DNA of 64,000 bases, from positions 1 through 64,000 of the forward strand of contig CAWDTA010000003.1 in assembly GCA_963805085.1 (NCBI GenBank), given 5' to 3'. The position numbers and the translations under genes are program-made. The stretch is from an uncultured Veillonellaceae bacterium. Its GTDB lineage: Bacteria; Bacillota; Negativicutes; JARBTT01. Of this stretch, positions 1-33,011 are shown one piece after another (positions within the stretch are counted from its first letter, which is position 1; each line of letters begins with the position of its first letter). The notes under the pieces were generated by a model. The model was not told the origin of the DNA. It ran no database searches and saw only the letters and a program-made list of their open reading frames with translations.

Positions 1-3000
1 TGGTTTTGGCTTTATCAATACGAATCGTGTGAGTTTGGTCACAGGAACACCAAATGTAGATACAAATGGCAGCTTGGATTCCTTCAATGTAAATAGTGGT
101 GACGTCAGCATTGAAGGAACTGGAATCAGTCAAGATACTCCGGCGACAAAACTAGATATCATGACCAGAGCGGCAAATATCAACGCCGAAGTATGGGCGG
201 ACGAAATCAATGTAGTTACTGGGAATAATAAAGTAAATTATCAGACCTTAGCAACTGAAACGATAGCAGAAAATCCAGTTAAAAAACCAACAGTAGCCCT
301 AGATGTAGGCGTAGTAGGTGGCATGTATGCAGGAAAAATCATGCTCGTTGGTACAGAAAAAGGTTTGGGTGTTGCCCTCGATGGTGAAGTATCTGCGAGC
401 AAGGGCTTGTCACTAACCAATGAAGGCAAAATCACCGTAAATGGCAGTATCAGTGCAAAAGAACCAATAAAAATCACAACCAGTGATGACTTTGTAAATA
501 ATGGTCAAATATCTTCTAACCAAGATATCAATATCACAGCGCAAAATATCACGAGTAGTGGATTTATCAGTGCCGGTGAAGAAGCTGATGAAGAAGATGA
601 AGACGGTAACTCTGCAAGTGCAAGTACGACTTTGGCAGATTTAACGGCAAATGCAGCCGAAAAAATCAATATTAGCGGTATGATCAGTGCAAGTAGAGAT
701 ATCACGTTATCCGGTAAAAAAGTAACTTATGAACCAAGTAATGCTACCGCTCAAAATATAACTGTCAATCAATCTGAGCCAGATACTCCGGTGGTCGAAC
801 CCGAAACCCCGACACCAACTGACCCAGATACGCCCTCAAAAGAGGAAACAAAAACTGAAACCATTACTACCGTAATCAATCCAAAAGCTCCAGCTCTACC
901 AACCTATTCTCAAATAGAAACGACAAAAGCAGTAGAAAAAGAACAAAATCTATTGCTTACTGCAGATCAATCAGCATCAGGAGACTATAAACCAATCATC
1001 GATAAAACAGCCAGCGGTGTTGATCTCGTGCAGATTGCCACTCCAAATACTAACGGTATTTCAAGAAACCTTTATACCGATTTTAATATCAACACTAGTG
1101 GACTCATTTTAAACAATGCAACGAAATATGCCAGCACCCAGCTAGGTGGTTATATTGACTACAACACTCGTTTAGGTGGTATTAGTGCCAAAGTCATTTT
1201 AAACGAAGTTACCAGTACTAATCCAAGTAAACTAAATGGCTTTATTGAAGTTGCTGGTAATAAAGCCAGCATTGTTATTGCCAATCCCAACGGCATGACT
1301 GTCAATGGGTTTGGTTATATCAACACCAGTAATGCGACACTGTCTACGGGTATCATCAGCAGCTGGCAAAACGGCACCGTAGAATTTTATCCAATTGCAA
1401 ATGGGAACATACTATTGCAAGGTGACGGCTTAAATGCATCCAAGACAGATACGCTCAATATTATTGCCAAAGAGTTTGCAAACTCTGCTTCTGAACTATG
1501 GGCAACTCAGCTCAGCTTATCAGCAGATGGCAATTTAAGTAATAACGGTAAAATAGTTACTACTGGCAGTATGCAGATTAAAGGGCAGAACCTAACCAAT
1601 GAAGAAAATGCCGTGATTAGCAGTACTGGTGATTTAGATCTAACGATAAAAGAAGACATCCTCAATCAAACCGCTGCCATAAATAGTGACGGTAATACTA
1701 CGATTACAGGAAAAAGTTTCACGAATAAAGAAAATGCCGTACTCTATAGTAAAGGAAACCTTGATCTCAAGGTAGAGGGCGATATCAATAACCAGACAGC
1801 AGCCATTTCCGTAAACGGTAAAACAAACCTTACAGGAAACTCGCTGCAAAATACAGCAAATGCATTGCTTTATAGTGGCAGTGACTTGAACGTAGCTGTA
1901 GCAAATGATATCAATAACCAAAAATCTACACTGCAAGCTGACGGAATAGCTACCCTTAACAGCAAAACCTTTGAAAATCAAGACGGTGCGTATTTTTCAA
2001 GTGGAAATACCCTTGCAATTCATGCGGATGACAGTCTGTTAAATCAAGCGTCTACTTTAAAAAGCAAAGCAAAGACAAGCATCACGACAAAAGCGGCCAT
2101 CAATCAAGCTGGCGCAGTTTTGCAAAGTGAAGATGATTTAACCATACAGGCTGAAAATAATTTAAAAAATCAAGTTTCCGCCATTAAAACAAATGGAAAC
2201 TTTAATCTTCAGACAAAAGAATTAATAAATCAAAGTAATGCGACCATTTCTAGTGGCAAGGATATGGATGTCACTGCCAAAGCTAGTATTACAAATCAAG
2301 CCTCTCAGCTGGAAAGTAGCGGAAAAATCACAGCCAAAACACAAGCCTTAACTAGTCAAGCCAGCTCTGTGATTTCAAGTGAAAAAGATTTAGATCTGGC
2401 AGTAGAATCAGATATTACCAATAAAGATTCCACAATAAAAAGTACTGGTAACACCAAAATTACCAGCCGAAACTTTAACAATGAAGGTTCTTCCTTTACC
2501 AGTGCAGGTGATCTATCTCTGACGGTAAAAGAAAATATTCAAAATAAAAATGCTGACATCCAAGTAGAAGGAAGTAGTGAAATCAGCGCTAAAAACCTTA
2601 GCAACGAAGCTGATGCTGGCATTTTTACCACAGGTGATTTCAATCTAAATTTAACCAATAAACTCACCAACCAAAATTCTGTACTCGCTGTAAATGGCAA
2701 AACAAATATTACCGCGCAAGGTATTGATAATCTCGATAACTCTGTGCTTTACAGTAGTGGTGATTTAACCTTAACAGCAGAAAATAATATATTAAACCAG
2801 TCCTCAGATATCGAAAGCCAAGGCAGTATCGCTATTACGGCTAACCAATTAACCAATGAAAAAGGTATATTTGAGACCTATTGGGATATAACCAATCAAA
2901 ATATAGCCTATGGAATTACGCCTATTTCTGGACATTACAGTGCCACGAGAAAATTCGCCAGAGAAATACAAACTGGTACGATTAAAGAAGAAACAGCAAC

Positions 3001-6000
3001 AGCGCAAATCTTAGCCGATAAAGACATCACAATCAAGACAAAGTCAAATGTAATCAATCACTATAGCACAATTGCCGCTGGTAATGATCTAACCATAGAT
3101 GCAGCTTACTTAGAAAACTTCGGCTATCAAGGTACGATTATTACCACCGATGTCGGCAATGACATTCACAACTGGAAATATAAACACCATGGAAAACTGC
3201 ATCATCATTGCCATATGGTTTACGGCACTACCGTTATTCCCTATTACAATCAAACAGTAGTAGACGAAGAAACCGTCAGACCAGGTATTTTAAGCGGGGT
3301 CAAAAAAGTAAAGATTACTGCCGGAACGATCGACAATAAAACCTTTGATGCTGGTAAAAATGTCATTCAGACGAAGACCCAGGCAGTAACGCAGCCTAGC
3401 GTTCTAACCCAGTTGACAGGACAAACAAAAGTAGCCAGCCAAGTAGATCCTAAGATCAATGCCGAAGATAAGGAAATCACTATCGGAAGTCTAGCTATAA
3501 ATAGCAAACTGTTCACCATCAATACAAATCCAACAGCAAAATACTTGGTAGAAACAAATGAAAAATTTGCTAACTACAACAATTTCCTCTCCAGTGATTA
3601 CTTATTAGAACGGGTAAAATCTGATCCAACAAAAGTATCAAAACGCTTAGGTGATGGCTACTACGAACAAAAACTAGTCACCGAACAAATCACTGAATTA
3701 ACCGGTAAAAAATACTTAAACGACTACAGCTCAGCCCTTGAACAATACCAAGCCTTAATGGAAAATGGCGCAACCGTTGCCAATGAGTATAACCTTACCG
3801 TAGGTGTAGCCTTAACCAAAGAACAAATGGCAGCCTTAACCAGCGATATCGTATGGCTAGTCGAAGAAGAAGTAAACGGAGAAAAAGTCCTCGTTCCCGA
3901 AGTATACTTATCAACTCTAAAAACAGGCGATTTAACCAGCAGTGGAGCTCTCATTGTGGGAACAGACGTCGAACTAGTTGCCAGTGATGACTTAAAAAAT
4001 GTCGGCACCATAAAAGCAGATAACAATCTAACCGTAGCTGCCAAAAACATCACCAACGAAAATGGTGCGATTTCTGGCGCAGAAGTAACGCTGACCGCAG
4101 AAGAAAATGTAACCAATAACAGTGCAGCCATTACCGGGAAAAACGTAACCATCTCTGCTGAAAATATCACAAACACAACTCAAACTCAAACAGAAAATTA
4201 CCAAGAACTAAACCAAACAAAAACACTCGATACTGCAAGTATCGCAGCAGAAAACAACCTTACCCTAATCGCTGAAGACTCCATAAAAAATCAAGGAGCA
4301 AAGCTAAGTGCAGGTAAAGAACTCGTACTCACAGCCAAAAAAGATATCGACATCGAAGCCGTAGCGAAGGAAAAACACGTAGCCGTTACCTACGGTAAAT
4401 CCAGTGCCGAAGAAAACACTACAAAGAGCGTAAGTAGTACTCTAACCGGACAAAACATCACGATAAACGGTGACAATGTAAATATCAAAGGCTCAAATGT
4501 TGCCGCAGACGAAGCAGTAGCTATTACAGGCAAAACTAACGTCAACATTACCGCTGAAAAAGACCTCGCAGAAACAGATGCGTCCGTAGGAAATCGTGGC
4601 GGAGAATACTTCAATCGGCAAAAAGACAGCAACGAAACTATCGCTTCCAGCAGTATCACAGCCGGAAAAGATATTCAAATCAAAGCAGACAAAGACATCA
4701 ACGTCAAAGGCTCGGACATCTCCAGTAATAAAGGAAAAATCACTCTAGATGCAAAAGAAAATGTAAATGTCTCAAACGAAACCGAACATCACGAAAGCCT
4801 GCACGAAGAACACAGAGAAAAAACAGGCTTCCTATCCTCAACTAAAACAGATATCTACGACTATCAAGCAAAAGATACAGTTGTAGGCAGCAATATCTCC
4901 GGTAATCAAATAAATGCAGATGCTACGAAAGATATCAACATCAAAGGCTCAACAGCAGTAGCAGATCAAGATGTAAATCTAAAAGCCGGAGGAAATATCA
5001 ACATCGAATCCGCCGAAGAAACCAGTGAAAGCCTATACGAAAAATCCGTTAAAAAATCTGGTCTTCTAACAGGTGGCGGACTCAGCGTCACCATAGGGAA
5101 ACAAAGCCAAAAAGACAGCCAAGCTAACCAAAACACCGAACAAATCAGCTCAACTGTAGGCAGTCTACAAGGCAATGTAACCCTAGAAGCAGGAAAAGAT
5201 GTAGACGTAAAAGCCAGTGATGTAATCGCAAATAAAGACATCAACATCACCGGAGAAAACGTTAATATAGAAAATAAAGATAATACGTATAATGCAGAGG
5301 AAAAACACGAATTTAAACAAAGTGGTTTAACAATAGCACTAAAAAGTCAGACCATAGATACCTATAAAAAAGTTTACGACTCAGTAGACAGAGCCGGACA
5401 AGTTTCAGATGACCGTTTAAAAGCACTGTATGCCTATAAAGCAGATGAAGACTATAAAGACATAAAGAAACAAGAAAAAGCGGCAAAAGCTCTAAAAGAA
5501 CAACAAGAAGCAGAAGAAGCAAAAAAACAAGAAGAAGCAAAAAATAAACAAGGGGCAGATAAAAACGCTAAAGATGGAGCAGAGAAAAAACCAGCAGAAA
5601 AAAGTGATATCTCCATCAGTGTAAGTCTAGGAACAAGTAAATCCGAAAGCAGCGCAACCAGCCAAACAACAGCTGCGCAAGGCAGCAGTATCACAGGCGG
5701 AAATAATGTAAAGATCACGGCAACAAAAGAAGATATCAAAGTCAAAGGCTCAGATATCACCGGAGAAAATGTAACCTTAGATGCCAAGAAAAATATCGAA
5801 ATCACCGCCAGTGAAAACAAAAATGTAAGCAACTCTGACAGCAAAAGTAGCTCAGCAAGTATCGGAGCAAGTATAAACTTAGGTGATGGCAGTATTGGCG
5901 GACTCAATGTAAGTGGTAGCAAACAAACAGGAGAAATCAAAGAAAACTCCACCACCTATAACCAAAGTACAGTTACCGCCAATAGCACCTTAAAACTAGA

Positions 6001-8425
6001 ATCCGACAAAGACATCAATATCAAAGGTTCAAAAGTAGAAGGAGAAACTGTCAAAGTAGATGCAGGAGAAAATCTAAATCTAGAAAGTCTGCAAGACAAA
6101 GAAACCTACGATGAGAAAAACAGCTCAGCTGGTGGAACGATCGGTGTAGGTGCTTTCAATGCATCAGCAAGTAAAGGAAAAATAAACTCAGACTATGAAA
6201 GCGTAACCAAGCAAGCCGAAATCCATGCAGGACAAGGCGGCTTCGATATCGAAGTAGGCAAAAATACCGATCTAAAAGGTGCGGTTATTTCGAGCGATGC
6301 TACGCCAGATAAGAATAAACTTAGCACGGATACACTAACTTACTCAGATATACAGAATAAGGCGGATTATAGCGCAAGTAGTACGGGGGGAAGTATTAGC
6401 CTTACCAAAGAAACAAAACCAGAAAAAGATGCAAATGGTAATCTGCAATTCAAAGATAAAAACGTAATAGACAAATCAATAGATCAAGGAATTCCTGTCA
6501 AAGGTGATGCAAAATCCACAACAAAATCTGCAATTGCAGATGGTACGATAGAAATAAGAAGCAATCCAAACCAAGACCTAAGTGGATTAAGTAGAGAAAC
6601 AGAAAAATCACTTAACGCATTAGGGAAAATCTTTGATAAGAAAAAAGTGCAAGAACAACAAGAATTAGTAAATTTATTTAGCAAAGAAGCGAATAATTTA
6701 ATCGGAGACATTTCCCTAAGAGAATACAAAAAAGCATTAGAAAAAGCAGAAGAAAGTAAAGGAACACCACAATATGATGAACTAATAAAAGAAGCTGAAA
6801 AATGGAAAACAGGAGGAAGTAATAAAATACTTCTACATACAATTGTAGGAGGAATAACCACAGGATTATCAGGAGATGGATTTACATCAGGAGCAACAGC
6901 TACAGGATTAAACGAAGCTTTACAAAAACAACTAAGTAAAATAAAAGACCCAACACTCCACGAACTCGCTAGTTCTATGATAGGGTTTGTAGCAGCAAAA
7001 ATAACTCATGGTGATACAAAGACATCAGAAGCTGTAAATGCCAGTGCAACAGAAAACAATTGGTTAAGGCATGAAGAACAAGAAAAATTTGCAGAACTAT
7101 TGAGTTTAACAAATGATAAAGACGAAAAAGCTAAAATAGTAGCATATTACACAGCCTTAAGTATGTATAATATAGCTCATCAATTATTACCAGGGATAGA
7201 ATCAGATGAAGGAATAGAGCCTGATCTATATACAGAATTACGAAAACTTACAGCGAATACAGATGGTGGTCTAAACTACACGCTAAATGACCTAACGATT
7301 AGTATATATGGTCAATACCAATTGGCGATCTATTACAGAAGCGAATTAGAAAGAAGCAACGGAACATTTGAATATCCGATAAATAATATCGGAGGGGTTA
7401 GTACCCCATTAACTCCTTCAACACCAGCGGATAATCGTACTAAATACGTAGAGCCAGTAACGATCTATCCATCACAAATAGAAGGAAATATAGTAAAAGA
7501 AAACGGTGAATACTTTGTAGTTGGAAGTACTGGAGAAAAAACGCCAGTAAATGCAGATGAAGTAGAAGGCAAAAGATTCTATGTAGCAGAATCAAACTCA
7601 TGGTTTGAGCATAAAAATGGAGACGACGTAGCAATTCCGCCAGTAAGAGTAGTAGATGGCGTAGAATGGAAAGTAAATCCAACAACTGGCGAAGATGTTT
7701 ATTCCCAAACCTTACCGAGTAATTACGAAGGTCTTAGTGCTGACAGACAAGAAACATTAAGAAAATTCGATAATGCGACAAGTTCGAGTGATAGAATAAC
7801 TTATGCTATGCAGTTTTTTGGTCAGGGATGGATTGAACCGATTACTACGTATAGAAATTCCCAATATCAACAAATGGTGAATGCGGGAATGTCAGAGGAG
7901 CTTGCAAGTTCTGCAGCTGACCAAATAACATTAAATTTCTTAACACCAGCTGTCGGAGCCGTGCTTAAAATAGGTGTTGGAGGACTAAGTAATCTAAAAC
8001 AAGTACTAAGTACTGAAACTAATGCTTATGAAGCAGGAATGACACTGGAAAATGGTGCGTGGAAATTTGATTTACAACTCTTTGCATCGTCTAAAAAATT
8101 AGGTGATAATTTAGTTGCAGCAGGTGTAGAAAGACCAAGTTATCCTAGTGCAGCACATCATATTGTTGCTGGAAATTCACCAAAAGCAAATGAGGCGCGA
8201 TTAATACTGCAAAATTTTGGTATAGATATTGATAGTGCTTTTAATGGAGTGTTTTTACCAACTGCGAAAGGTGTTAGCAATTCTGCGTATCACCCAAGTC
8301 TTCATACCGATGCGTATTATGAAAAAGTAAACGAATTATTGAAACTGGCTAGCAGTAAGGATGACGCACTTGAGATACTAAAGGATATATCTAGTCAGTT
8401 ACAAAATGGGACCCTTTTAAAATAG
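1..8425 (+). CDS. cdiA: CdiA/filamentous-haemagglutinin-like TpsA exoprotein with C-terminal AHH (HNH/EndoVII-fold) nuclease toxin; 5' end lies outside the window
   Basis: Frame is open from base 2 (GFGFINTNRVSLVTG). TPS motifs GGMYAGKI and ANPNGMTVNGFGYIN, FHA beta-helix repeats, RLGDGYYEQKLV and LTSDIVWLV blocks, VENN-like ATENNWL at 7046-7066, and tip AAHHIV...NGVFLP...H...H. Confidence 0.9.
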   Translation, partial: GFGFINTNRVSLVTGTPNVDTNGSLDSFNVNSGDVSIEGTGISQDTPATKLDIMTRAANINAEVWADEINVVTGNNKVNYQTLATETIAENPVKKPTVALDVGVVGGMYAGKIMLVGTEKGLGVALDGEVSASKGLSLTNEGKITVNGSISAKEPIKITTSDDFVNNGQISSNQDINITAQNITSSGFISAGEEADEEDEDGNSASASTTLADLTANAAEKINISGMISASRDITLSGKKVTYEPSNATAQNITVNQSEPDTPVVEPETPTPTDPDTPSKEETKTETITTVINPKAPALPTYSQIETTKAVEKEQNLLLTADQSASGDYKPIIDKTASGVDLVQIATPNTNGISRNLYTDFNINTSGLILNNATKYASTQLGGYIDYNTRLGGISAKVILNEVTSTNPSKLNGFIEVAGNKASIVIANPNGMTVNGFGYINTSNATLSTGIISSWQNGTVEFYPIANGNILLQGDGLNASKTDTLNIIAKEFANSASELWATQLSLSADGNLSNNGKIVTTGSMQIKGQNLTNEENAVISSTGDLDLTIKEDILNQTAAINSDGNTTITGKSFTNKENAVLYSKGNLDLKVEGDINNQTAAISVNGKTNLTGNSLQNTANALLYSGSDLNVAVANDINNQKSTLQADGIATLNSKTFENQDGAYFSSGNTLAIHADDSLLNQASTLKSKAKTSITTKAAINQAGAVLQSEDDLTIQAENNLKNQVSAIKTNGNFNLQTKELINQSNATISSGKDMDVTAKASITNQASQLESSGKITAKTQALTSQASSVISSEKDLDLAVESDITNKDSTIKSTGNTKITSRNFNNEGSSFTSAGDLSLTVKENIQNKNADIQVEGSSEISAKNLSNEADAGIFTTGDFNLNLTNKLTNQNSVLAVNGKTNITAQGIDNLDNSVLYSSGDLTLTAENNILNQSSDIESQGSIAITANQLTNEKGIFETYWDITNQNIAYGITPISGHYSATRKFAREIQTGTIKEETATAQILADKDITIKTKSNVINHYSTIAAGNDLTIDAAYLENFGYQGTIITTDVGNDIHNWKYKHHGKLHHHCHMVYGTTVIPYYNQTVVDEETVRPGILSGVKKVKITAGTIDNKTFDAGKNVIQTKTQAVTQPSVLTQLTGQTKVASQVDPKINAEDKEITIGSLAINSKLFTINTNPTAKYLVETNEKFANYNNFLSSDYLLERVKSDPTKVSKRLGDGYYEQKLVTEQITELTGKKYLNDYSSALEQYQALMENGATVANEYNLTVGVALTKEQMAALTSDIVWLVEEEVNGEKVLVPEVYLSTLKTGDLTSSGALIVGTDVELVASDDLKNVGTIKADNNLTVAAKNITNENGAISGAEVTLTAEENVTNNSAAITGKNVTISAENITNTTQTQTENYQELNQTKTLDTASIAAENNLTLIAEDSIKNQGAKLSAGKELVLTAKKDIDIEAVAKEKHVAVTYGKSSAEENTTKSVSSTLTGQNITINGDNVNIKGSNVAADEAVAITGKTNVNITAEKDLAETDASVGNRGGEYFNRQKDSNETIASSSITAGKDIQIKADKDINVKGSDISSNKGKITLDAKENVNVSNETEHHESLHEEHREKTGFLSSTKTDIYDYQAKDTVVGSNISGNQINADATKDINIKGSTAVADQDVNLKAGGNINIESAEETSESLYEKSVKKSGLLTGGGLSVTIGKQSQKDSQANQNTEQISSTVGSLQGNVTLEAGKDVDVKASDVIANKDINITGENVNIENKDNTYNAEEKHEFKQSGLTIALKSQTIDTYKKVYDSVDRAGQVSDDRLKALYAYKADEDYKDIKKQEKAAKALKEQQEAEEAKKQEEAKNKQGADKNAKDGAEKKPAEKSDISISVSLGTSKSESSATSQTTAAQGSSITGGNNVKITATKEDIKVKGSDITGENVTLDAKKNIEITASENKNVSNSDSKSSSASIGASINLGDGSIGGLNVSGSKQTGEIKENSTTYNQSTVTANSTLKLESDKDINIKGSKVEGETVKVDAGENLNLESLQDKETYDEKNSSAGGTIGVGAFNASASKGKINSDYESVTKQAEIHAGQGGFDIEVGKNTDLKGAVISSDATPDKNKLSTDTLTYSDIQNKADYSASSTGGSISLTKETKPEKDANGNLQFKDKNVIDKSIDQGIPVKGDAKSTTKSAIADGTIEIRSNPNQDLSGLSRETEKSLNALGKIFDKKKVQEQQELVNLFSKEANNLIGDISLREYKKALEKAEESKGTPQYDELIKEAEKWKTGGSNKILLHTIVGGITTGLSGDGFTSGATATGLNEALQKQLSKIKDPTLHELASSMIGFVAAKITHGDTKTSEAVNASATENNWLRHEEQEKFAELLSLTNDKDEKAKIVAYYTALSMYNIAHQLLPGIESDEGIEPDLYTELRKLTANTDGGLNYTLNDLTISIYGQYQLAIYYRSELERSNGTFEYPINNIGGVSTPLTPSTPADNRTKYVEPVTIYPSQIEGNIVKENGEYFVVGSTGEKTPVNADEVEGKRFYVAESNSWFEHKNGDDVAIPPVRVVDGVEWKVNPTTGEDVYSQTLPSNYEGLSADRQETLRKFDNATSSSDRITYAMQFFGQGWIEPITTYRNSQYQQMVNAGMSEELASSAADQITLNFLTPAVGAVLKIGVGGLSNLKQVLSTETNAYEAGMTLENGAWKFDLQLFASSKKLGDNLVAAGVERPSYPSAAHHIVAGNSPKANEARLILQNFGIDIDSAFNGVFLPTAKGVSNSAYHPSLHTDAYYEKVNELLKLASSKDDALEILKDISSQLQNGTLLK

Positions 8426-8437: not shown

Positions 8438-8977
8438 ATGAAAATATGGCATTTAGGGGCAGATGTAAATAACTTTGATAATCTAATTCCAATTAAGGAA
8501 GAAGATTGGAACTTATTAAGATTTGACGGAATAAGGTTATCCAATATATGGAAATCGATTCCTGTTCGTGTGATTGAAGATCGGAAAAAAAGTGACACAC
8601 CTGGATTGTCAGCTGGGATTCCGGTTTTTAGTTCAAGGTCTATAGAAGTATTAAACGATCTGATGGCAGATAGTGTTGAAATTCTTCCTTTAAGATGTAG
8701 AAAAGGAGATTATTATGCTATTAACGTTCTAAATGTCTTAGATTGTATTGATTATGAAAGTTCAGAGTTTAAAAAATTTGAAAACTCAGGACGAATCATG
8801 CGGTTTATTAAATATTCATTTAAACCTAATTACGTAAATGGTAAACATATATTTAAAATTGTTGATGAACCAGTTCGAAGACCTTTTGTTTCAGATGAAT
8901 TTAGAAACAGAGTCTTAGATAATGAGCTAGTAGGCTTTAAATTTGATCTTGTGTGGGATTCAGAATTAGGTAACTAG
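8438..8977 (+). CDS. cognate immunity protein (DUF1629/Imm11-like)
   Basis: Starts 12 nt after the toxin stop with an AGGAGG RBS. Pattern YYAINVLNVLDCID...HIFKI...FVSDEF...LVGFKF is typical of immunity proteins paired with AHH nucleases. Confidence 0.8.
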   Translation: MKIWHLGADVNNFDNLIPIKEEDWNLLRFDGIRLSNIWKSIPVRVIEDRKKSDTPGLSAGIPVFSSRSIEVLNDLMADSVEILPLRCRKGDYYAINVLNVLDCIDYESSEFKKFENSGRIMRFIKYSFKPNYVNGKHIFKIVDEPVRRPFVSDEFRNRVLDNELVGFKFDLVWDSELGN

Positions 8978-9664: not shown

Positions 9665-11590
9665 AGAAAACGTCAATATAGAAAATAAAGATAATACGTA
9701 TAATGCAGAGGAAAAACATGAATTCAAACAAAGTGGTTTGACAATAGCGCTACAAAGTCAGACCATAGATACCTATAAAAAAGTTTACGACTCAGTAGAC
9801 AGAGCTGGACAAGTTTCAGATGACCGTTTAAAAGCACTGTATGCCTATAAAGCAGATGAAGACTATAAAGACATAAAGAAACAAGAAAAAGCGGCAAAAG
9901 CTCTAAAAGAACAACAAGAAGCAGAAGAAGCAAAAAAACAAGAAGAAGCAAAAAATAAACAGGGGCAGATAAAAACGCTAAAGATGGAGCAGAGAAAAAA
10001 CCAGCAGAAAAAAGTGATATCTCCATCAGTGTAAGTCTAGGAACAAGTAAATCCGAAAGCAGCTCAACCAGCCAAACAACAGCTGCGCAAGGCAGCAGTA
10101 TCACAGGCGGAAATAATGTAAAGATCACGGCAACAAAAGAAGATATCAAAGTCAAAGGCTCAGATATCACCGGAGAAAATGTAACCTTAGATGCCAAGAA
10201 AAATATCGAAATCACCGCCAGTGAAAACAAAAATGTAAGCAACTCTGACAGCAAAAGTAGCTCAGCAAGTATCGGAGCAAGTATAAACTTAGGTGATGGC
10301 AGTATTGGCGGACTCAATGTAAGTGGTAGCAAACAAACAGGAGAAATCAAAGAAAACTCCACCACCTATAACCAAAGTACAGTTACAGCCAATGACAACT
10401 TAACCATGAACTCTGGTAAAGATACGGATATCAAAGGGTCAAAAGTAAGTGGGGATAAAGTCAAAGTAGATGCAGGAGAAAATCTAAACCTAGAAAGCCT
10501 GCAAGACAAAGAAACCTATGATGAGAAAAACAGCTCAGCTGGTGGAACGATCGGTGTAGGTACGTTCAATGCATCAGCAAGTAAAGGAAAAATAAACTCA
10601 GACTATGAAAGCGTAACCAAGCAAGCCGAAATCCATGCAGGACAAGGCGGCTTCGATATCGAAGTAGGCAAAAATACCGATCTAAAAGGTGCGGTCATTT
10701 CGAGCGATGCTACGCCAGATAAGAATAAGGTCAGCACAGATACGCTGACTTTCTCCAATATGGAAAACAGAGCTAAATATAACTCAAGTAATACGGGGCG
10801 AAGTTATAACACAGATCCTAAGGCTAAATTAAATGAACAGGGATTTATTCCTACTGCTAATATGCCTGTATCTGGTGATGCAGATAGTACAACAAAGTCG
10901 GCTATTTCTCCTGGTACAATTGAAATAAGGAGTAATCCAAGTCAAGATATTTCTGGTCTTAGTCGAGATACTACTAATTCATTAAATGCTTTAGGTAAAA
11001 TATTTGACAAAGAAACGGTTAAAGAACGACAGGAGTTAGCAGGTTTATTTGGTCAAGTAGCATTTGAAGAAATTCATAAGTTAAGTGTAAAGAATGGGTG
11101 GAAAGATGGAGATCCTCAGAAAGTAGCACTCCATGCTCTAGTTGGTGGAATAATGTCTGAACTTACTGGAAGTGGTTTTACAGCTGGTGCTGAAGGCGCA
11201 GGCTTCAATGAACTTGTACAGAAGGAATTGTCGAAGATTACAGATCCTGCACTCCGTCAGTGGGCCAGCTATATTATCAGCTCTTCCACCGGTACAGCAG
11301 GTCGCGTTGCTGCGTTATATGGAACGAAGTATAATGATTTATGGGAGTCGACGAAACAATGGGCTGTGCAAGCTAGTGTAGATAGCGCTGCAGCGTTTGC
11401 TGCGTATAACACCGCAATTGCAGCGGGACTTTCTCCTTCAGAGGCAAGTTTTGCAGTAATTACTACAGGGGCAGTTTTATCTATTAGCGATAATGAGTAT
11501 AATTGGAGCGCTGCTATTGTTAAGTATTGTACTGAGTTAAAGTTTGATAAAGATGAAGAGGACCCAATACAGAGAAATAGAGCTTTTTGA
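9665..11590 (+). pseudogene. orphan cdiA 3' cassette (homology arm plus alternative C-terminal tip), frameshifted
   Basis: 9665-10728 nearly duplicates 5254-6318, with a 1-bp deletion near 9960 (AAACAGGGG versus AAACAAGGGG). The sequence then diverges and has GTKYNDL at the VENN-equivalent position followed by a short Ala-rich tip. Confidence 0.85.
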
Positions 11591-12010: not shown

Positions 12011-12378
12011 GTGACAGTTTTCAATGCTTCAAAAATTGGACACTGTCCCTATGGGAAAATAGGTAAATAAAAACGAGGTCAACGGACGTAAAAAATCCGT
12101 TAACCTTTTTTCATTTCAGGTGTTTTTTAGTGACACATAATTCACAGGCAATAAATTCCTATTAACAATACTATTTCAATTAATCTAGAAAATCTGAGTA
12201 ACTCTGAAATTAAAACGATTTAGACTCATTGCCTCCACAAAATGGACAACTACCTCCATAGCCATTACCAGAGCAATTAGAACAATAAGTACCACCACAG
12301 TCTTTGCATTTTTGTAATGCACCCATACAAGGGGCATCACTACCACAATTCGGACATTTTCTCACAGTATCATACATA
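12011..12378. repeat. post-immunity module copy 2
   Basis: Diverged duplicate of 8983-9351. Confidence 0.9.
12210..12377 (-). CDS. second copy of the 55-aa Cys-rich gene; ORF intact but RBS deleted
   Basis: MYDTVRKCPNCGSDAPCMGALQKCKDCGGTYCSNCSGNGYGGSCPFCGGNESKSF. The ATG abuts cdiA-derived sequence, so the GGAGG of copy 1 is missing. Confidence 0.7.
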   Translation of the reverse strand: MYDTVRKCPNCGSDAPCMGALQKCKDCGGTYCSNCSGNGYGGSCPFCGGNESKSF

Positions 12379-12864
12379 GACAGAGCTGGACAAGTTTCAG
12401 ATGACCGTTTAAAAGCACTGTATGCCTATAAAGCAGATGAAGACTATAAAGACATAAAGAAACAAGAAAAAGCGGCAAAAGCGCTAAAAGAACAACAAGA
12501 AGCAGAAGAAGCAAAAAAACAAGAAGAAGCAAAAAATAAACAGGGGGCAGATAAAAACGCTAAAGATGGAGCAGAGAAAAAACCAGCAGAAAAAAGTGAT
12601 ATCTCCATCAGTGTAAGTCTAGGAACAAGTAAATCCGAAAGCAGCTCAACCAGCCAAACAACAGCTGCGCAAGGCAGCAGTATCACAGGCGGAAATAATG
12701 TAAAGATCACGGCAACAAAAGAAGATATCAAAGTCAAAGGCTCAGATATCACCGGAGAAAATGTAACCTTAGATGCCAAGAAAAATATCGAAATCACCGC
12801 CAGTGAAAACAAAAATGTAAGCAACTCTGACAGCAAAAGTAGCTCAGCAAGTATCGGAGCAAGT
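12378..12864 (+). pseudogene. third cdiA homology-arm fragment, truncated at both ends
   Basis: Near-identical to 5386-5872 (constant offset 6992); it ends where the REP-like hairpin begins. Confidence 0.9.
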
Positions 12865-12904
12865 GGGACAAGGGGACAGGTTTACTGTCCCACTAATAAA
12901 AAGA

Positions 12905-12913
12905 TGTTATACT
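12905..12913 (+). promoter_or_regulatory. extended -10 promoter (TGtTATACT), the probable original RAYT promoter
   Basis: Removing the IS110 places it directly before GAGGTGAT and the RAYT ATG. Confidence 0.55.
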
Positions 12914-13056
12914 AATATTGAGACTAACTATATGAAGTCAAGAAAGAAAGCTAGTTTGGCAGGAAAAATTATGAGCGTTAAAATGGGCATAGAAATATAC
13001 ACCTAAGGCTGTTTGAAATTTAGCAGAAGGCGTAAGAAAAAAACAGAAAAAGATAG

Positions 13057-14235
13057 TTAGCTTTGAGGAATAAATGAAGAATTTGTTTTGAGTAAATGAA
13101 AGACCACTCTAACAAGTTTTTTACCAACGTGGCTCATGGCAACAGTGTAATGCTTTCCTTCTGTTTTCTTTTTGCAACAATACTCCTTAAAGGTAGTATC
13201 ACGCATAGCAACTAATCGAGCTGCGACTAAGAAAGCCCAGCGTAAGTAGGTAGAACCACGTTTAACCATGGGAGTATTCCCAGCATTAAACTTACCTGAC
13301 TGATAGGTAGATGGTTCAAGACCAGCAAACGCCAAAAGCTTTGCTGGTGTAGCAAAATTAGAGATATCTCCGATTTCCGCTAAAATGATTGCACCAATTG
13401 TGTAAGAAATTCCGGGGATTGTAAGGATCGGCGGATTAATATCTTTCATAATAGCCTTAATCTGTTGATCGAGAATGTTAATTTCCTCTTGGAAGTTGTA
13501 AATTAGTCGAATGGTTTGTTGTAACTCGAAGCTAACAGAAAGACTGTTACTGCCAATGGATTTCACTGCAAGTTCACGAAGTTGTATAGCTTTCTCCCTG
13601 CCGTAATGTCCCTTGGAGTTTTCAGCAATGAGATTGGTGAGTTTGGTCAGGTGACATTGTGCAATTTCCTTGGCGGTTGGATATTTGAGTAAAAGTGCAT
13701 AGCTTGAAGCTTGATGAATAGACCATACCAGTGAATGCAGTTCTGGAAACAAAATAGTAACTAATCTTGAAATTGAAATCTTAAGACGTGACCGCAAGGA
13801 AATCAGACGGAAACGATGCCTTACTAATGACTTTAATTCTGATATCTGATAAGATACGGGTGTATAGGACTTAGAGTCATCAGAAAAGAGCATGATAGCT
13901 AAAAATCGTGCATCGGTTTTGTCGGTCTTGGTTTTTCTTAAAGTTTGTCCCTTTCGGTATAGGTTGACGTGAAGTGGATTGAAAGTTGTGATTTCAAACC
14001 CTTTAGCTTTTAAGAAATTAGTAAGATTAGTGCTGTAATGACCTGTTGATTCAAGTCCTATACGTGCGTCTAAAAGCTTTTTATTGGGTAGAAAAGAAAC
14101 AACTGTATCATAGAAAAAATCAAAGCCCTCACGGTTATTGGTAAAAGTAAAATTACTATTTAGAACAGTGCCATCGCCGTTGATAATGCAGCAATCGTGC
14201 TTGGCTGATGCAACATCAATCCCGATATAAAGCAT
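13057..14235 (-). CDS. IS110-family DEDD recombinase/transposase
   Basis: YIGIDVASAKH, GLESTGHY, KTDKTDA, TIPGIS, YQSG motifs. Start moved to ATG 14235 because of the GAGGAG RBS at 14245-14250. Confidence 0.95.
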   Translation of the reverse strand: MLYIGIDVASAKHDCCIINGDGTVLNSNFTFTNNREGFDFFYDTVVSFLPNKKLLDARIGLESTGHYSTNLTNFLKAKGFEITTFNPLHVNLYRKGQTLRKTKTDKTDARFLAIMLFSDDSKSYTPVSYQISELKSLVRHRFRLISLRSRLKISISRLVTILFPELHSLVWSIHQASSYALLLKYPTAKEIAQCHLTKLTNLIAENSKGHYGREKAIQLRELAVKSIGSNSLSVSFELQQTIRLIYNFQEEINILDQQIKAIMKDINPPILTIPGISYTIGAIILAEIGDISNFATPAKLLAFAGLEPSTYQSGKFNAGNTPMVKRGSTYLRWAFLVAARLVAMRDTTFKEYCCKKKTEGKHYTVAMSHVGKKLVRVVFHLLKTNSSFIPQS

Positions 14236-14247
14236 AAATAACAACTC

Positions 14248-14494
14248 CTCTACAAGATTAACGCTGATTTCTTTCCACAAGACTTTATGCAATATGTATC
14301 CTTGTCCGATATAAAACGTCAAAGCGTTATCTAACTAATTAACAATTAAGCATAAAGCTGTGGTTGTATCCTCAAAAAAACAGTCAACCAAAATCAGTTG
14401 CTGTAGGTGATATAACCAATCCACAGTGTTACGTTAATCTTATAGAGTTTTAGACATTTTTTAAAGAAAAGGTAATGAAAACTCTACGGTTTTC
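14248..14494 (-). ncRNA. predicted bridge RNA of IS110 element 1
   Basis: Two stem/internal-loop domains carry segments matching the flanking target (14405-14412, 14371-14375) and the circle junction (14331-14337, 14301-14305). RNA ends are approximate. Confidence 0.8.
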
Positions 14495-14512: not shown

Positions 14513-15271
14513 ATGCCAAGAAAAGCTCGGGTAAAAAGTGAAACAGGAATCTATCATCTGATATGTAGGGGAATCAATAAACAAAATATATTTGAAGATG
14601 AAGAAGACAAACAAAGATTTTTAGAAACGCTTGCATATTATAAGAAATTGAGCGGTTATTTGCTATATGGATATTGTTTGATGGATAACCATATTCATTT
14701 GCTGATAAAAGAGAATAAAGAATCAATAGACCAAGTGATAAAACGAATTAGTAGTAGCTATGTATATTGGTATAATCAAAAATATCAACGATGTGGGCAT
14801 TTGTTTCAAGAGCGATATAAGAGTGAAGTTGTCGAGACAGATGCATATTTTCTTATGGTTTTGAGATACATTCATCAGAATCCGGTAAAAGCAGGAATTA
14901 CCAAAAATGTAGGTAAATATTTGTGGAGTAGTTATCAAAATTATGTCGGTATACCAGGTATTACAGATATAGAGCTTGCGTTAGAAAATTTTTCGAGTGA
15001 CAAAGCAGCGGCGACAAAATTATTTATAGAGTATACAAATGAAAACAATGCAGATGAGTGTTTGGATTGTAGAGAAAAAGTGATTGTATCCGATCAAGAA
15101 ATAATGAAATATTTAAGTGAAATGGGAATAACAACGATTAGTCAATTGCAACGATTAAATAAAGAGCAACGGGATAATGTAATCCGAAAGATAAAAGAAA
15201 AGGATGGCATTACGATAAGGCAATTAGCAAGAATAACAGGAATTTCTAAAAGTGTAATTGATAGATTGTAG
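14513..15271 (+). CDS. REP-associated tyrosine transposase (RAYT, Y1_Tnp)
   Basis: MPRKAR...YHLICRGINKQNIF, YCLMDNHIHLL (HUH), GHLFQERYKS, YIHQNPVKAG, WSSY, and a C-terminal HTH. Confidence 0.92.
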   Translation: MPRKARVKSETGIYHLICRGINKQNIFEDEEDKQRFLETLAYYKKLSGYLLYGYCLMDNHIHLLIKENKESIDQVIKRISSSYVYWYNQKYQRCGHLFQERYKSEVVETDAYFLMVLRYIHQNPVKAGITKNVGKYLWSSYQNYVGIPGITDIELALENFSSDKAAATKLFIEYTNENNADECLDCREKVIVSDQEIMKYLSEMGITTISQLQRLNKEQRDNVIRKIKEKDGITIRQLARITGISKSVIDRL

Positions 15272-27377: not shown

Positions 27378-27920
27378 ATGAATTTAAATTTGCTGGACTT
27401 GCAAAGGCGCTTACAAAAAAATGGTGTGCTAATCACTTTCTCTGGTCGCTTTACCCAAGAAATTATTGAGGAGCTTGGGGATGCAGTAAAAAAGTATATG
27501 GAGACAGAATCCACGCAACATAAAACACATGATGTATTTGCTGTTTTTATTGAGCAGACGCAAAATGTGAAAAATTATGCCAGCAGTCAAAGTGAATTTG
27601 CCAATGGTGAAAAAATCGCCAATTCGGGGATTGTTGCAATTGGCAAAGACGCGGAAGGGTACTTTGTGTCTTCAGGAAATATGCTGACTACTACTGATGT
27701 TGAGTTGCTTAAAGATAAGTTAGTTGTGATTACGTCTTTGGATAAGATCGGGCTAAAAAAGCTATATAAGGAACAAATAAAGAAAACTCTTGATCCAGAA
27801 AGTACCGGCGCAGGCCTAGGGCTTATTGATATGGCTCGGCGTGCTAGTGGAAAGCTCCAGTATTCTATACAGGATATTGATGAGCAATTATCATTTTTTA
27901 CTCTTAAGGTTCAAGTGTAG
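27378..27920 (+). CDS. siaB: SiaB-family protein kinase
   Basis: FSGRFTQEIIEELG, FIEQTQNV and GAGLGLIDMARRA motifs. Confidence 0.85.
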   Translation: MNLNLLDLQRRLQKNGVLITFSGRFTQEIIEELGDAVKKYMETESTQHKTHDVFAVFIEQTQNVKNYASSQSEFANGEKIANSGIVAIGKDAEGYFVSSGNMLTTTDVELLKDKLVVITSLDKIGLKKLYKEQIKKTLDPESTGAGLGLIDMARRASGKLQYSIQDIDEQLSFFTLKVQV

Positions 27921-27930
27921 GAGGAAAGAC

Positions 27931-28323
27931 ATGGAAAATTTATGCATAGAGCAAACAAAGTCAACTCCAACCATTCAGTTTGATATTGTGAATAATAAGC
28001 TGAGGATTGAAGGACAATCTTATCCGGAAAATGCCTTTAAGTTTTATGAACCAATTTTTAATTGGTTGGATCAGTATTTGACAGAAATAGATAAAGAAAC
28101 TGTTTTAGAAATATATTTTCATATGCCGTATATAAATACGAGTAGTTCTAAGTGCATTATGATGCTGCTAGAAAAAATGGAAAATGCTTATCAGGAAGGG
28201 CGAAAAGTTGCAATCGAATGGTATTATAATCATGAAGATGAGGCCGCATTGGAGTGCGCAGAAGAGTTTAAGGAAGATCTTATGTTACCGTTTGAGCTTA
28301 TTGTCTTAGATGATGATGAATAA
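27931..28323 (+). CDS. siaC: SiaC-family (DUF1987) phospho-switch protein
   Basis: TPTI, GQSYPENAFKFYEP and YINTSSSK motifs. ATG 27931 follows AGGAGG. Confidence 0.88.
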   Translation: MENLCIEQTKSTPTIQFDIVNNKLRIEGQSYPENAFKFYEPIFNWLDQYLTEIDKETVLEIYFHMPYINTSSSKCIMMLLEKMENAYQEGRKVAIEWYYNHEDEAALECAEEFKEDLMLPFELIVLDDDE

Positions 28324-30172
28324 AGAGCGGGAGCACTTGGGTATGAGCAAAGTAACGAGTGATCAAAATATTATGTATGATGGCAGCACGATGAAGGTAG
28401 TGAGCTTTGCTTGTCTCATCATTGTATTGGCTGTTGTTTTTACAGGTAGCATAAGTTATTTTATTACGCGTAATGCAGTTGTAGATAAGCTTAAATCACG
28501 GGATCTTGTTTATATTATTGAATCGGCAACAGCAAAAATTGACGGGAGAATTGCCCGCGCTCGCGAGACGTCTCTTCTTCTGGCGCGGGATTCTGCGGTT
28601 AACGAATGGGTGCTTTCAGGTGAAAAAAATGAACAATTGGGAAAGTATGCAAAAGATAAGCTTACAGATATGGCCCAAAGTTACGACTATGTTAATTCCT
28701 TTATTGTCAGTGCAGTAACAGGAAATTACTGGGCTGAAGAAGGTAGGCTACTGCAGAGAATGTCCGAAAATAATGCGGATGATTACTGGTTTTATGAAAC
28801 ACTCAAATCTGATAAAGCGGTAAGCTTGAATATTGATTATAATATTGGCAGAGACAATACCTATGTTTTTTTGAATGCGTTAATCGGGGATTTAAAACAT
28901 CCCAGTGGCATAGCGGGCGTTGGTTTGAGTCTTGCAGACATTGCCAAAGAATTTACAGAGTATAAGTTCGGTGAAAGTAGTGCCTTGTGGCTAGTGGATG
29001 GCAAGGGGAAGATTCATTTAGCGGATAGCGTAGAACAAAACGGTAAATATCTAAACGATTTTATGCCAGCGTCAGTAGCTGATCAAATTATTGCTGATAC
29101 GAACAGCCAGCAGACCCAACCACAAATATTGGAATATGTAAACGCAGCTGGAGAAACCGTTGACTTGGCGTATAAGAGAACTGAATCTACCGATTGGAAA
29201 GTGGTACTCCAAATCAAGCGTAGTGAAAGTATCGCAGTTTTAAAAACGATTAAACTGAATACAGCGATTGCCAGTTTTATTGCTGTGCTTATGATTACTC
29301 TAGTTTTTTATTTGGTATCGCGTAGAATTGCGAATCCACTCAAACGCGCCCTTTTACTTACGCAAAAAATGGAGCAGCAGGTAAAAGCGCGGACGAGTGA
29401 ATTGGCTGAAAGTAATGAGAAAATTATGGATAGCATTGAATATGCTCGACTGCTTCAGGAATCTATATTACCGACTTCCGAGGAACTTGAGGATGCACTT
29501 GGCTCTTATTTTGTACTTTGGCAGCCGCGTGATATTGTCGGTGGTGACTTCTTTTGGGTGAGGCGCGTGAGTGAGGAAAAGAGTCTGGTTGCTCTTGTGG
29601 ATTGTACTGGTCATGGTGTTCCCGGTGCATTTATGACGATGGCTGTGAATTCAGCTTTAAAACATATTGTTGAACAAAATTACACGGAACCGGCTCAGAT
29701 TTTATCAGAATTAAATTTGCAGATGAAGCAAATTTTGCATCGTAATCATCAGAAATCTTTTAATGACGATGGCCTAGATATTGCTATTTGTGCCATTGAA
29801 GGTCATTCACGGCTGAGTTTTGCTGGGGCTAAACTTTCACTTTATGTTAGACGAGATCAGGAAATCCATACGATACCAGGTGATCATAAGAGTATTGGCT
29901 ATAAAGCATCGCCTGAGACTTTGACCTTTACCAGTCAGAGTTGGGATATTGAGGCTGGCGATCAGTTTTACTTAGTGACAGATGGTTATATTGACCAAAA
30001 TGGTGGTAAAAAAAATTATTCCTTTGGTAAGAAAAATTTTATTACAGAAATTCTCGCGCAACGAGAAGCGGTAGCTTGTCAAGCAGCACATTTTGAGACA
30101 GTGTTGCGAAACTATATGGCAGATGAATCACAGCGTGATGATATTACTTTATTAGGTTTTTCTATTCGTTAG
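28310..30172 (+). CDS. siaA: SiaA-like membrane sensor with PP2C/SpoIIE phosphatase domain
   Basis: Two TMs around a Cache-like domain; PRDIVGGDF, DCTGHGVPGA, TDGYIDQ and QRDDIT motifs. Start uncertain. Confidence 0.85.
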   Translation: MMMNKEREHLGMSKVTSDQNIMYDGSTMKVVSFACLIIVLAVVFTGSISYFITRNAVVDKLKSRDLVYIIESATAKIDGRIARARETSLLLARDSAVNEWVLSGEKNEQLGKYAKDKLTDMAQSYDYVNSFIVSAVTGNYWAEEGRLLQRMSENNADDYWFYETLKSDKAVSLNIDYNIGRDNTYVFLNALIGDLKHPSGIAGVGLSLADIAKEFTEYKFGESSALWLVDGKGKIHLADSVEQNGKYLNDFMPASVADQIIADTNSQQTQPQILEYVNAAGETVDLAYKRTESTDWKVVLQIKRSESIAVLKTIKLNTAIASFIAVLMITLVFYLVSRRIANPLKRALLLTQKMEQQVKARTSELAESNEKIMDSIEYARLLQESILPTSEELEDALGSYFVLWQPRDIVGGDFFWVRRVSEEKSLVALVDCTGHGVPGAFMTMAVNSALKHIVEQNYTEPAQILSELNLQMKQILHRNHQKSFNDDGLDIAICAIEGHSRLSFAGAKLSLYVRRDQEIHTIPGDHKSIGYKASPETLTFTSQSWDIEAGDQFYLVTDGYIDQNGGKKNYSFGKKNFITEILAQREAVACQAAHFETVLRNYMADESQRDDITLLGFSIR

Positions 30173-30205
30173 CATTGGATATGCGAATGAAGGTGAGATG
30201 AGGTT

Positions 30206-31813
30206 TTGATGAAAAAAGAAATGGAAAAGCATTTGTTTGATGGTGAAGATCGGACTTTAGAAGAGGCACAGACTATGATTGCTCATACCACGGCTAATGA
30301 ACAGAAAATATTGGCGCCGTACTCACGGTTGACTAAAGAATATCAGAAGTTGTTGCGCATTACGAAGAAAGCTTTTTATATAAGTGATCGTCAGGGGAAA
30401 GTTCTGCAGAGGCAGCAAGCTGAGATGCAGAATTTACTTGATAATGCAAATCAAGGCTTTTTAACTTTTACTAGGGATTTGAAAGTTGGCCGTCAATATA
30501 GCCGGGAATGTATTCGGGTATTTGGTCAGAAGATAGCTGGTTTATCAATTACCTCTCTTTTAACGCAAGAAAATGATACAGATAAAATTAAATTAGAGAA
30601 AATTTTGTCGCAGGTTTTTGCTGAAAGCAATGCTCTTGCAGAGTCGTTACTTCAGCAATTTCCAGTGCGGTTTCGGATCAAGGACAGAGATATTCAGGTT
30701 GAATGCAAATTGCTTGAATCTGAGTTTGGTGATGAGCTTTTAATTATGATGATTTTGACAGACATTACGGAAAAATTATTAGCAGATAAAGAAATTCATT
30801 ATCTTAGTTATCATGATAAAATGACAGGGGTATATAATCGTGCTTATGTCGAGACAGTCTTACCAGAAATTGAAGGAGCCCAAACGATGCCAATCAGTAT
30901 TGTTATTATTGATATGAATGGATTGAAACTGGTAAATGATGTTTTCGGGCACCAACAGGGGGATACGCTACTAATTACTATTGCGAATATCATGAAAAAA
31001 TGTTGCCGACCAACTGATATTATTGCTCGCTGGGGCGGGGATGAGTTTTTGATCGTATTGCCACAGACGAGCGCTGGGGTTTGTCAAGAAATTTGTGAGT
31101 GCATTCAAGCTGCTTGTGCTCAAACAAAAGACAATCCAATCAAGGTTAGTGCGGCTATTGGTCGGACTACGAAAACGAGAGGGACTTTTCGCTTTCCAGA
31201 AATGTTTAGTGAAGCGGAGAGTAGGATGTATAGCGATAAGTTAGCTAAAAGAGCAGCCTTGCATCAAGGTTTTATTTCCAGCCTAGAAGGACTATTATAT
31301 AGTCAATGTTATGAAAATGATGGTCATGGCACTCGAGTAGAGCAGTTGACGTCTAAATTTATCGCTTTTTTAGGGCTGCCGTTGGAGCAGTCACAAATAG
31401 AGACTTTACTCCATTTGGCAAGACTACACGATATTGGTAAGGTAGCCATTAACAGTGATATCTGGGGACGCAGAGGCGTTTTGAGTGATGAGGAGTGGGA
31501 GATTGTGAAAAATCATAGTGATGTAGGGTATCGCTTAGCTAACTCTATTGGAAAAACTCCTTTGGCAGAGAATATTCTTTTACATCATGAATGGTGGGAC
31601 GGGACAGGATACCCTCATGGATTACTTGAAGAGCAAATACCACTTACAGTGCGAATATTTTCATTGATTGATATGTATGATGTTTTAACCCATGATCGTC
31701 CCTATCGGTCGGCGCTAGGAAAACAAGAGGCACTAATGGAAATTTCCAGTGAAAGTGGGACCCATTTTGATCCCACGCTTACCCAAAAATTTTTGGAGTT
31801 TATTACAGATTAA
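30206..31813 (+). CDS. SiaD-like coiled coil + PAS-like + GGDEF + HD-GYP protein
   Basis: EYQKLLRITKKAFYISDRQ, RWGGDEF, HDIGK and HHEWWDGTGYP motifs. Confidence 0.88.
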   Translation: MMKKEMEKHLFDGEDRTLEEAQTMIAHTTANEQKILAPYSRLTKEYQKLLRITKKAFYISDRQGKVLQRQQAEMQNLLDNANQGFLTFTRDLKVGRQYSRECIRVFGQKIAGLSITSLLTQENDTDKIKLEKILSQVFAESNALAESLLQQFPVRFRIKDRDIQVECKLLESEFGDELLIMMILTDITEKLLADKEIHYLSYHDKMTGVYNRAYVETVLPEIEGAQTMPISIVIIDMNGLKLVNDVFGHQQGDTLLITIANIMKKCCRPTDIIARWGGDEFLIVLPQTSAGVCQEICECIQAACAQTKDNPIKVSAAIGRTTKTRGTFRFPEMFSEAESRMYSDKLAKRAALHQGFISSLEGLLYSQCYENDGHGTRVEQLTSKFIAFLGLPLEQSQIETLLHLARLHDIGKVAINSDIWGRRGVLSDEEWEIVKNHSDVGYRLANSIGKTPLAENILLHHEWWDGTGYPHGLLEEQIPLTVRIFSLIDMYDVLTHDRPYRSALGKQEALMEISSESGTHFDPTLTQKFLEFITD

Positions 31814-32777: not shown

Positions 32778-33011
32778 AAACTGTGCCTGACAGTTATAAA
32801 ATAATGAAAAATTTATAATAGAGCAAAAAAATCCAGCTGAACTTAGAATTCAGCTGGATTTTTTATGTTCTTTTTTATTTTGAGTTTAAAAAATGCAGGT
32901 ACAAGAATGTATATAAGTGAGAGGGGATGATTCCGGTGGTGTAGGAGTGTGAGTTGCTAAAACAAAGTTAAAAGTGTTGTGAGAAACTAAAAAATGGAAG
33001 AGGTAAGAATA

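Follow-up and report, generated by a model that had tools for sequence, protein, structure and literature searches.

During import, nuclease colicins are trimmed by proteases of the target cell: FtsH acts on colicins D and E3, and LepB on colicin D. The C-terminal parts of contact-dependent inhibition proteins of the CdiA type (CdiA-CT) that combine a cytoplasm-entry domain with a toxin domain depend on target factors such as CysK or EF-Tu. The cysteine protease Prp has one proven cellular substrate, the ribosomal protein L27, and a few phage substrates. Here, we describe a site resembling the Prp site of L27 at the joint of a predicted CdiA-type toxin. It is encoded in a 64,000-nucleotide (nt) stretch of contig CAWDTA010000003.1 from an uncultured Veillonellaceae bacterium; this whole stretch is referred to as the window.

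The Prp motif is MLxx(D/N)LQ(F/L)F'A(S/H)KK (the apostrophe marks the cut and, in the toxins below, the corresponding junction), and it is carried by the scaffold and capsid proteins of the staphylococcal phage 80alpha (PMC9405229). This agrees with a first-pass annotation of the window, which stated that the L27 extension is cut by Prp and that phage scaffold and capsid proteins reuse the motif. The positions emphasised for the site are Phe at P1, Gln at P3, hydrophobic residues at P4 and P6, and a small residue at P1'; the P6 hydrophobic residue, P4 Leu, P3 Gln, and P1 Phe are those used in the Prp–peptide crystal structure (PMC9405229). Known sites include the L27 starts of C. tetani (MLLMNLQLF'ATKK) and B. 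subtilis (MLRLDLQFF'ASKK), the 80alpha scaffold (LKFNLQFF'ADQS), and the 80alpha capsid (LKLNLQHF'ASNN), and the substrates (NLQFF, NLQLF, DLQFF, NLQHF) differ at P5 and P2 (PMC9405229). Prp also cuts a His6-SUMO-L27 fusion at its internal F-A bond, and the substitution F12A at P1 abolishes both Prp binding and cutting (PMC12324487). In the discussion of a 2026 preprint, the L27 extension is still said to have no clear purpose, and L27 and proteins of staphylococcal phages are the only named carriers of the sequence (10.64898/2026.08.10.744006).

The window protein is encoded by a single frame at positions 2-8425 of the + strand, which is open at the 5' end and comprises 2807 codons within the window. 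Pfam domains identified in this protein were TPS (145 bits; best stretch, residues 320-596), Fil_haemagg_2 (197 bits), Fil_haemagg (41.6 bits), and AHH. The protein shares 35% identity over 2019 amino acids (aa) with a haemagglutinin-repeat protein of Sporomusa sphaeroides (P0002). An immunity gene of the Imm11 family starts 13 nt past the cdiA stop codon. By its domain content and gene order, the locus is a CdiA-type contact-dependent inhibition system. Its main features are as follows:

2-8425, + strand: tpsA/cdiA gene, 5'-truncated, for a filamentous-haemagglutinin-type contact-dependent inhibition exoprotein (open reading frame listing and Pfam)
7052-7060, + strand: ENN tripeptide in ATENNWL, residue 2351, found by script; 457 residues to the C-terminus
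7052-8059, + strand: CdiA-CT front part, residues 2351-2686; matched by homologues P0004 and P0005, which do not match the tip
7922-7996, + strand: mild hydrophobicity at residues 2641-2665, about 25 residues upstream of the motif; the Kyte-Doolittle mean over 19 residues reaches 1.46
8060-8098, + strand: L27-like motif WKFDLQLF'ASSKK, W2687-K2699 (translation, core scan, and AHH alignment)
8084-8422, + strand: AHH (HNH/EndoVII-type) tip, 113 residues, a predicted nuclease; Pfam AHH PF14412 at residues 2704-2793
8438-8977, + strand: Imm11-family immunity gene, 179 aa; Pfam PF07791, E 6e-15, 55.5 bits vs a cut-off of 22.1

The motif is located between the 344-aa front part of the CdiA-CT (residues 2351-2694, counted to the predicted cut) and the 113-aa AHH tip, and the translation of 2-8425 contains LENGAWKFDLQLFASSKKLGDNLVAAG around it. 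The predicted cut falls between F2694 (nt 8081-8083) and A2695 (nt 8084-8086) and leaves 113 residues. The AHH match (55.8 bits vs a cut-off of 22.3) starts at residue 2704, which is position 5 of the 111 positions in the profile, and therefore the motif abuts the edge of the domain. Thus, the placement of WKFDLQLF-ASSKK at the N-terminal edge of AHH, with about 113 aa after it, was confirmed as first annotated. The A-A-H-H residues that name the family are found at 2717-2720, in nearly invariant alignment columns; the tip has no relative of solved structure.

The sequence DLQLF'AS corresponds to the Prp-site core (D/N)LQ(F/L)F followed by A(S/H). When all six frames of the window are translated (127,996 residues), the strict published core, [DN]LQ[FL]FA[SH], matches once. 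The composition of the protein itself gives an expectation of 1.85e-5 matches in 2807 aa, the per-position probability being about 7.5e-7. The P3'-P4' KK of the Prp motif is offset by one residue in the window (ASSKK vs ASKK), within a stretch that is a trait of the AHH family. A compositional break at the motif was considered and rejected, as the guanine-plus-cytosine (GC) content is steady at 0.37-0.39 over nt 7400-8400. A tblastn search with the 25-aa motif stretch against phages gave no match.

The ENN tripeptide presumably represents a VENN-like mark of the start of the variable CdiA-CT. The front part that follows is probably a delivery or translocation part. Its last third is common to the TpsA proteins P0004 (with a TNT tip) and P0005, whose tips differ and in which the motif is absent. 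No match of the window protein to the Pfam pre-toxin models was obtained at E<=0.01, and the front part has neither a Pfam match nor a relative of solved structure. The net charge of residues 2351-2694 is -23. At the other end of the protein (window 2-1789), Pfam TPS occurs in two stretches separated by a Pro/Thr/Glu-rich linker at residues ~265-300; the first residues of the truncated frame are also TPS-like, and the Sporomusa relative is alignable only from residue ~434.

A library-wide search with residues 2640-2807 retrieved 1784 proteins at E<=1e-3; the counts of AHH representatives given here refer to the 150 listed of these 1784, and the residue counts to an alignment of 110 of the 150 with the window sequence. 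Most of the 150 matches start at query positions 55-57, that is, from F2694 to S2696. The residues downstream of the predicted cut are common in the alignment: A2695 in 37/109, S2696 in 66/109, S2697 in 98/109, K2698 in 45/109, K2699 in 20/109, and L2700 in 108/109. Those upstream are rarely found: W in 1/99, K in 2/99, F2689 in 0/102, and D in 13/102, followed, nearest the cut, by L in 14/109, Q2692 in 5/109, L2693 in 2/109, and F2694 in 0/109. The string ASSKK is, therefore, the usual start of the AHH module and cannot count separately as a sign of L27 mimicry, for which FDLQLF is the informative part.

None of the 150 AHH representatives carries the strict core, and a single one (P0093) has the relaxed core [DN][LI]Q[FLKH]F[AGS], in the form LKMDLQLF'G, five residues before its AHH module. 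The expected number of core matches in 150 AHH proteins is 0.043 anywhere and 0.003 within 30 aa of the junction, vs one observed near the junction. The motif is missing from the closest tips, which are those of P0002 (75% identical; junction VEKITS'ASSRKLGDN) and the Rhs proteins P0003 (GALKFLSK'ASPQILGRN) and P0006. No orthologue with the same linker as in the window was found among 2219 candidates. AHH junctions on plasmids that were read by eye (a Bacillus thuringiensis LXG-type protein, a Fusobacterium vincentii orphan, and a Burkholderia cenocepacia Rhs protein) did not display the motif either. One subgroup of AHH proteins (P0007-P0035 and others) shares a distinct lead-in, GG(L/T)D(A/T)LS(T/K)PSSKVLRQN, behind unrelated front parts; this lead-in may be another junction element.

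P0093, a protein of 159 aa, reads GPLKMDLQLF'GKEANM-ASS. Its first 48 residues match four Rhs C-terminal proteins of Clostridium, from records of C. botulinum, C. sporogenes, and Clostridium sp. FAM 1755. In the alignment of these proteins, conservation runs through GGSKAKNLYKAEGLLKMDLQ(L/K)F-GK and then ends fully. One genome was scanned, that of Clostridium sp. FAM 1755 (NZ_CP175919.1), in which the locus (L001) consists of a main Rhs gene followed by orphan modules. The sequence (L/P)L(K/E)M(D/N)LQ(L/K)F'GK stands where conservation ends in 5/8 distinct Clostridium Rhs junctions:

P0157: LLEMNLQKF'G
P0158 (same protein as L001 7912-9162): LLKMDLQLF'G
P0159: LLKMDLQKF'G
P0093: PLKMDLQLF'G
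L001 5992-7167: PLKMDLQKF'G

The core is missing in the other three junctions (P0160, the main Rhs of L001, and L001 4552-5388), where NLYK directly abuts the tip. Since these three lack an element of ~11 residues and keep the rest of the pre-toxin region, the element behaves as an optional cassette and not as part of a fold. Within the core, P5 (D/N) and P2 (L/K) vary, as they do among the known Prp substrates, while P4 L, P3 Q, and P1 F are fixed. No similarity below E=1 links the five tips behind the core, which comprise one AHH tip, one Ntox35 tip, and three without an assigned family. All six motif-bearing tips, including that of the window, are 105-119 aa long. In the Clostridium proteins, a transmembrane-like segment with a hydropathy of up to 2.47 and a stretch with a net charge of +27 precede the core by ~50 residues; an uncut tip would stay tethered. 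P0158 gave no match when compared with plasmids and with phages, and an Atlas search with its front part returned scores of only 0.81-0.83, under the lead level of the tool. Between orphan Rhs modules without AHH, L001 also contains an Imm11 remnant (7527-7808; E 1e-10), which suggests the trace of a lost AHH cassette.

Genomic L27 sequences were obtained with E. coli L27 as a probe, which revealed rpmA on misfiled chromosomes in the plasmid collection (66 records, 25 of them listed). No Negativicute rpmA was present among the 25 listed. In Acetoanaerobium noterae, a member of the Clostridia, the operon has the order L21 - Prp (PF04327, E 5e-25) - L27, and its L27 starts MFKMDLQLF'ASKKGVGSS. 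Positions P7-P1 of this L27 are identical to the Clostridium Rhs core KMDLQLF. With the window motif it shares K (P7), DLQLF, and AS, which amounts to 6/9 upstream positions plus P1'-P2'. In E. coli, rplU and rpmA are adjacent with no prp between them. The same arrangement, with a short L27, is found in Monoglobus pectinilyticus (L008, Clostridia), and Subdoligranulum probably also has a short L27 and lacks prp between rplU and rpmA. None of rplU, prp, and rpmA was found in the 64,000 nt of the window.

Judged from these comparisons, toxin junctions with L27-type sites recur in two lineages of Bacillota, the phylum in which Prp is usual. From the observed anatomy, motif, rarity, and recurrence at toxin joints of a second family, we infer that Prp is the protease, that the cut takes place in the target, and that it benefits toxicity. 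The CdiA-CT would then combine a delivery part of 344 residues with an AHH nuclease of 113 residues that Imm11 would neutralise in sister cells. KFDLQLF'AS at the joint would be a short linear motif copying the site at which Prp trims the N-terminus of L27. Once the CT had reached the cytoplasm of the target, the target's own Prp would cut after F2694, and the small nuclease, thus detached from the delivery part, would gain access to DNA. In our judgement, the data are best explained if the target's Prp releases the tip, and we hold this view with a confidence slightly short of even. The cut of the internal site in SUMO-L27 makes internal cutting in the toxin feasible. With rather less than even confidence, we further propose that L27-site copies constitute a portable release cassette of Firmicute polymorphic toxins, both CdiA-type and Rhs-type, placed before at least five unrelated small tips. 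Prp, as an essential ribosome-maturation protease of the victim, would then act as a third-party activator by detaching the tip from a membrane-bound delivery part.

Several observations weigh against release by the target's Prp. The core is absent from 149/150 AHH representatives and from the closest relatives of the window tip, and release is therefore not required for AHH toxicity. The Ntox35 tip occurs both with the core (P0159) and without it (main Rhs of L001); together with the motif-less AHH tips, this makes release optional at best. The first-pass annotation suggested that the toxin may be released by the victim's own Prp. This idea has gained from the recurrence in Clostridium Rhs proteins, the match to A. 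noterae L27, and the SUMO-L27 cut. The five Clostridium junctions go back to a single ancestral pre-toxin region and thus count as one independent event; their P1' residue is Gly, not Ala or Ser, and P2 is Lys in 3/5. The window site is internal (residue 2694 or later), unlike the short N-terminal extension of Prp substrates, and to our knowledge the site lies within ~15 residues of the N-terminus in all proven ones. The producer presumably has Prp too, and the precursor would meet it before export. Of the 25 listed L27 records, 13 belong to Bacillota or Fusobacteriota; 11 of them align from residues 1-4 of the long L27 and two only from residue 9. These late-aligning records and Monoglobus imply that the trait of long L27 and Prp is not universal in Bacillota. 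Moreover, the Prp of each species is tuned to its own L27 (PMC9405229).

The linker might read DLQLF by chance, with the tip acting while joined and no cut being made. Such an account has to explain only about five residues, given that the downstream half ASSKKL is a family trait, and even A-x-K-F may be inherited, since P0003 has GALKFLSK'ASPQ at the same place. It is also in line with the 149 core-less AHH representatives and with the lack of an orthologue sharing the linker among the 2219 candidates. Against it stand the per-position probability of the core, the agreement of the window motif with A. noterae L27, and the occurrence of this core at a comparable boundary in a second, independent toxin family. 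Because the core is improbable at a given place and recurs independently at a boundary of that kind, where 0.003 matches are expected, chance is a poor explanation, and we regard it as unlikely. A junction element with no relation to Prp is another improbable account. It could serve as a homology arm for tip swapping, form a structural strand, or be cut by another protease or by the toxin protein itself, its likeness to L27 being convergent or incidental. The Clostridium motif is indeed the last conserved stretch before divergence, as VENN and DPxGL are in other toxin families, and its P1' Gly and P2 Lys deviate from the L27 consensus. In addition, a back-up protease (Rrp) can trim L27 in one pneumococcal strain (bioRxiv 10.64898/2026.08.10.744006), which also weakens the earlier argument that resistance of the target would be costly. 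A general junction function is, however, difficult to reconcile with the three of eight Clostridium junctions that dispense with the ~11-residue element and otherwise keep the pre-toxin region, and the fixed P6 hydrophobic residue, P4 L, P3 Q, and P1 F are exactly those of the Prp-peptide structure (PMC9405229). No peptidase domain was detected by Pfam in the C-terminal regions of the window protein or of the Clostridium proteins, and a protease domain in cis was accordingly rejected; the only peptidase-like match, to Zincin_2, was below the cut-off (E 0.005-0.007) and fell in a basic low-complexity stretch.

Prp could also cut in the cytoplasm of the producer, either as a safety or regulatory device that separates the tip before export, or so as to yield a free toxin-immunity pair. 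Prp is cytoplasmic and the producer is a Firmicute; in so long a protein, the C-terminus is the last part to be synthesised, and the immunity protein binds it in the cytoplasm. Orphan Rhs modules have been described as toxin-antitoxin pairs (PMC7043789). Yet cutting at this stage would disarm the exported filament and leave the full-length arrangement hard to explain, and the motif is also kept on full Rhs-type C-termini after the Rhs core. We therefore consider cutting in the producer very unlikely.

The cdiA gene and its immunity gene are followed in the window by two further cdiA pieces:

10406-11590, + strand: orphan cdiA C-terminal fragment, 394 aa; Fil_haemagg_2 tail and weak DUF637 match, no L27-like motif
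12304-12915, + strand: second cdiA fragment, a haemagglutinin repeat piece; Pfam Fil_haemagg_2, E 6.7e-18

After these fragments, an IS110-family transposase (13057-14322, minus strand) and a REP-associated tyrosine transposase (14513-15271) are encoded; another IS110 is located at 47305-48585. No TpsB was found among the 48 open reading frames (ORFs) scanned downstream of cdiA, which itself runs off the 5' end of the window. Other window genes encode TonB/ExbBD, a TonB-dependent receptor, a chemotaxis receptor, a short YidC of the Firmicute type, and GlpABC, and the GC content of the window is 0.35-0.40. Every named relative of GlpA is a Negativicute, with 59-69% identity (a Veillonellales metagenome-assembled genome, Dendrosporobacter, Propionispira, Pelosinus, Propionispora, Sporomusa, Pectinatus, and Sporolituus). 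The host is thus placed, by GlpA alone, among the Negativicutes, which are Firmicutes with two membranes.

Further genes of the window (27378-31813) encode a kinase, a phosphoprotein, and a phosphatase similar to SiaB/SiaC/SiaA, with a GGDEF protein after them; the set resembles the SiaABCD biofilm switch of Pseudomonas. The region 32994-39127 comprises an ORF of 576 aa and, after it, three tandem paralogous ORFs of 332-334 aa (34860-35858, 36177-37175, and 37485-38489). These ORFs have no Pfam or NCBIfam match and adjoin an ECF-type sigma factor on the other strand. An ORF of the Staygreen family, known mainly from plants, is present at 39455-39910 (minus strand; PF12638, E 1.9e-23).

In the literature searched, most of which lay outside subscription journals, no link of Prp to toxins or toxin processing was found, as judged by the titles and abstracts of the papers listed. 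One set of motif strings occurred only in Prp papers; for a second set, the Prp review was the only paper relevant by its title. Among the papers listed for Negativicute names, none held both Prp and L27. If release by the target's Prp is true, toxins join phage capsid proteins as exploiters of the L27/Prp system, and an essential housekeeping protease becomes an activating factor that the target cannot easily lose. The Prp of the target would then partly set the range of the toxin. The motif could be used as a marker of toxin-tip boundaries in Firmicute genomes, and such toxins would be a possible selective force behind the co-variation of L27 sites and Prp between species.

The site in the window shares its core with those of L27 and the 80alpha proteins: (D/N)LQ(F/L)F, with a small residue after it. 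The known sites lie within ~15 residues of the N-terminus, in cytoplasmic proteins that come from the Prp-bearing cell itself or from its phage. That of the window occupies an internal position, where the two parts of an exported inter-bacterial toxin meet; if our reading is true, the protease would be the victim's. Nuclease colicins offer a parallel in that an essential protease of the victim is needed so that only the small catalytic domain enters the cytoplasm; the protease, the envelope step, and the mode of recognition differ, and we know of no colicin that mimics a ribosomal-protein site. The two-part CdiA-CTs share with the window protein a presumed VENN-like start, a front part common to different tips, a small nuclease tip, and an adjoining immunity gene; no protease site between their two parts was found in the literature searched. 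A counterpart with the same architecture is the TpsA-AHH protein P0002 of Sporomusa sphaeroides, with a 75% identical tip and a module that starts alike (ASSRKLGDNLVAAG vs ASSKKLGDNLVAAG), but it has VEKITS before the module and no L27-like core. The Clostridium Rhs modules (P0157-P0160; L001) share with the window the L27-like core at the joint of pre-toxin and toxin, tips of 105-119 aa, one of them AHH, and an Imm11 remnant. They differ in their scaffold of Rhs repeats with a carbohydrate-binding module, in the P1' Gly, and in the strongly basic, transmembrane-like stretch before the motif.

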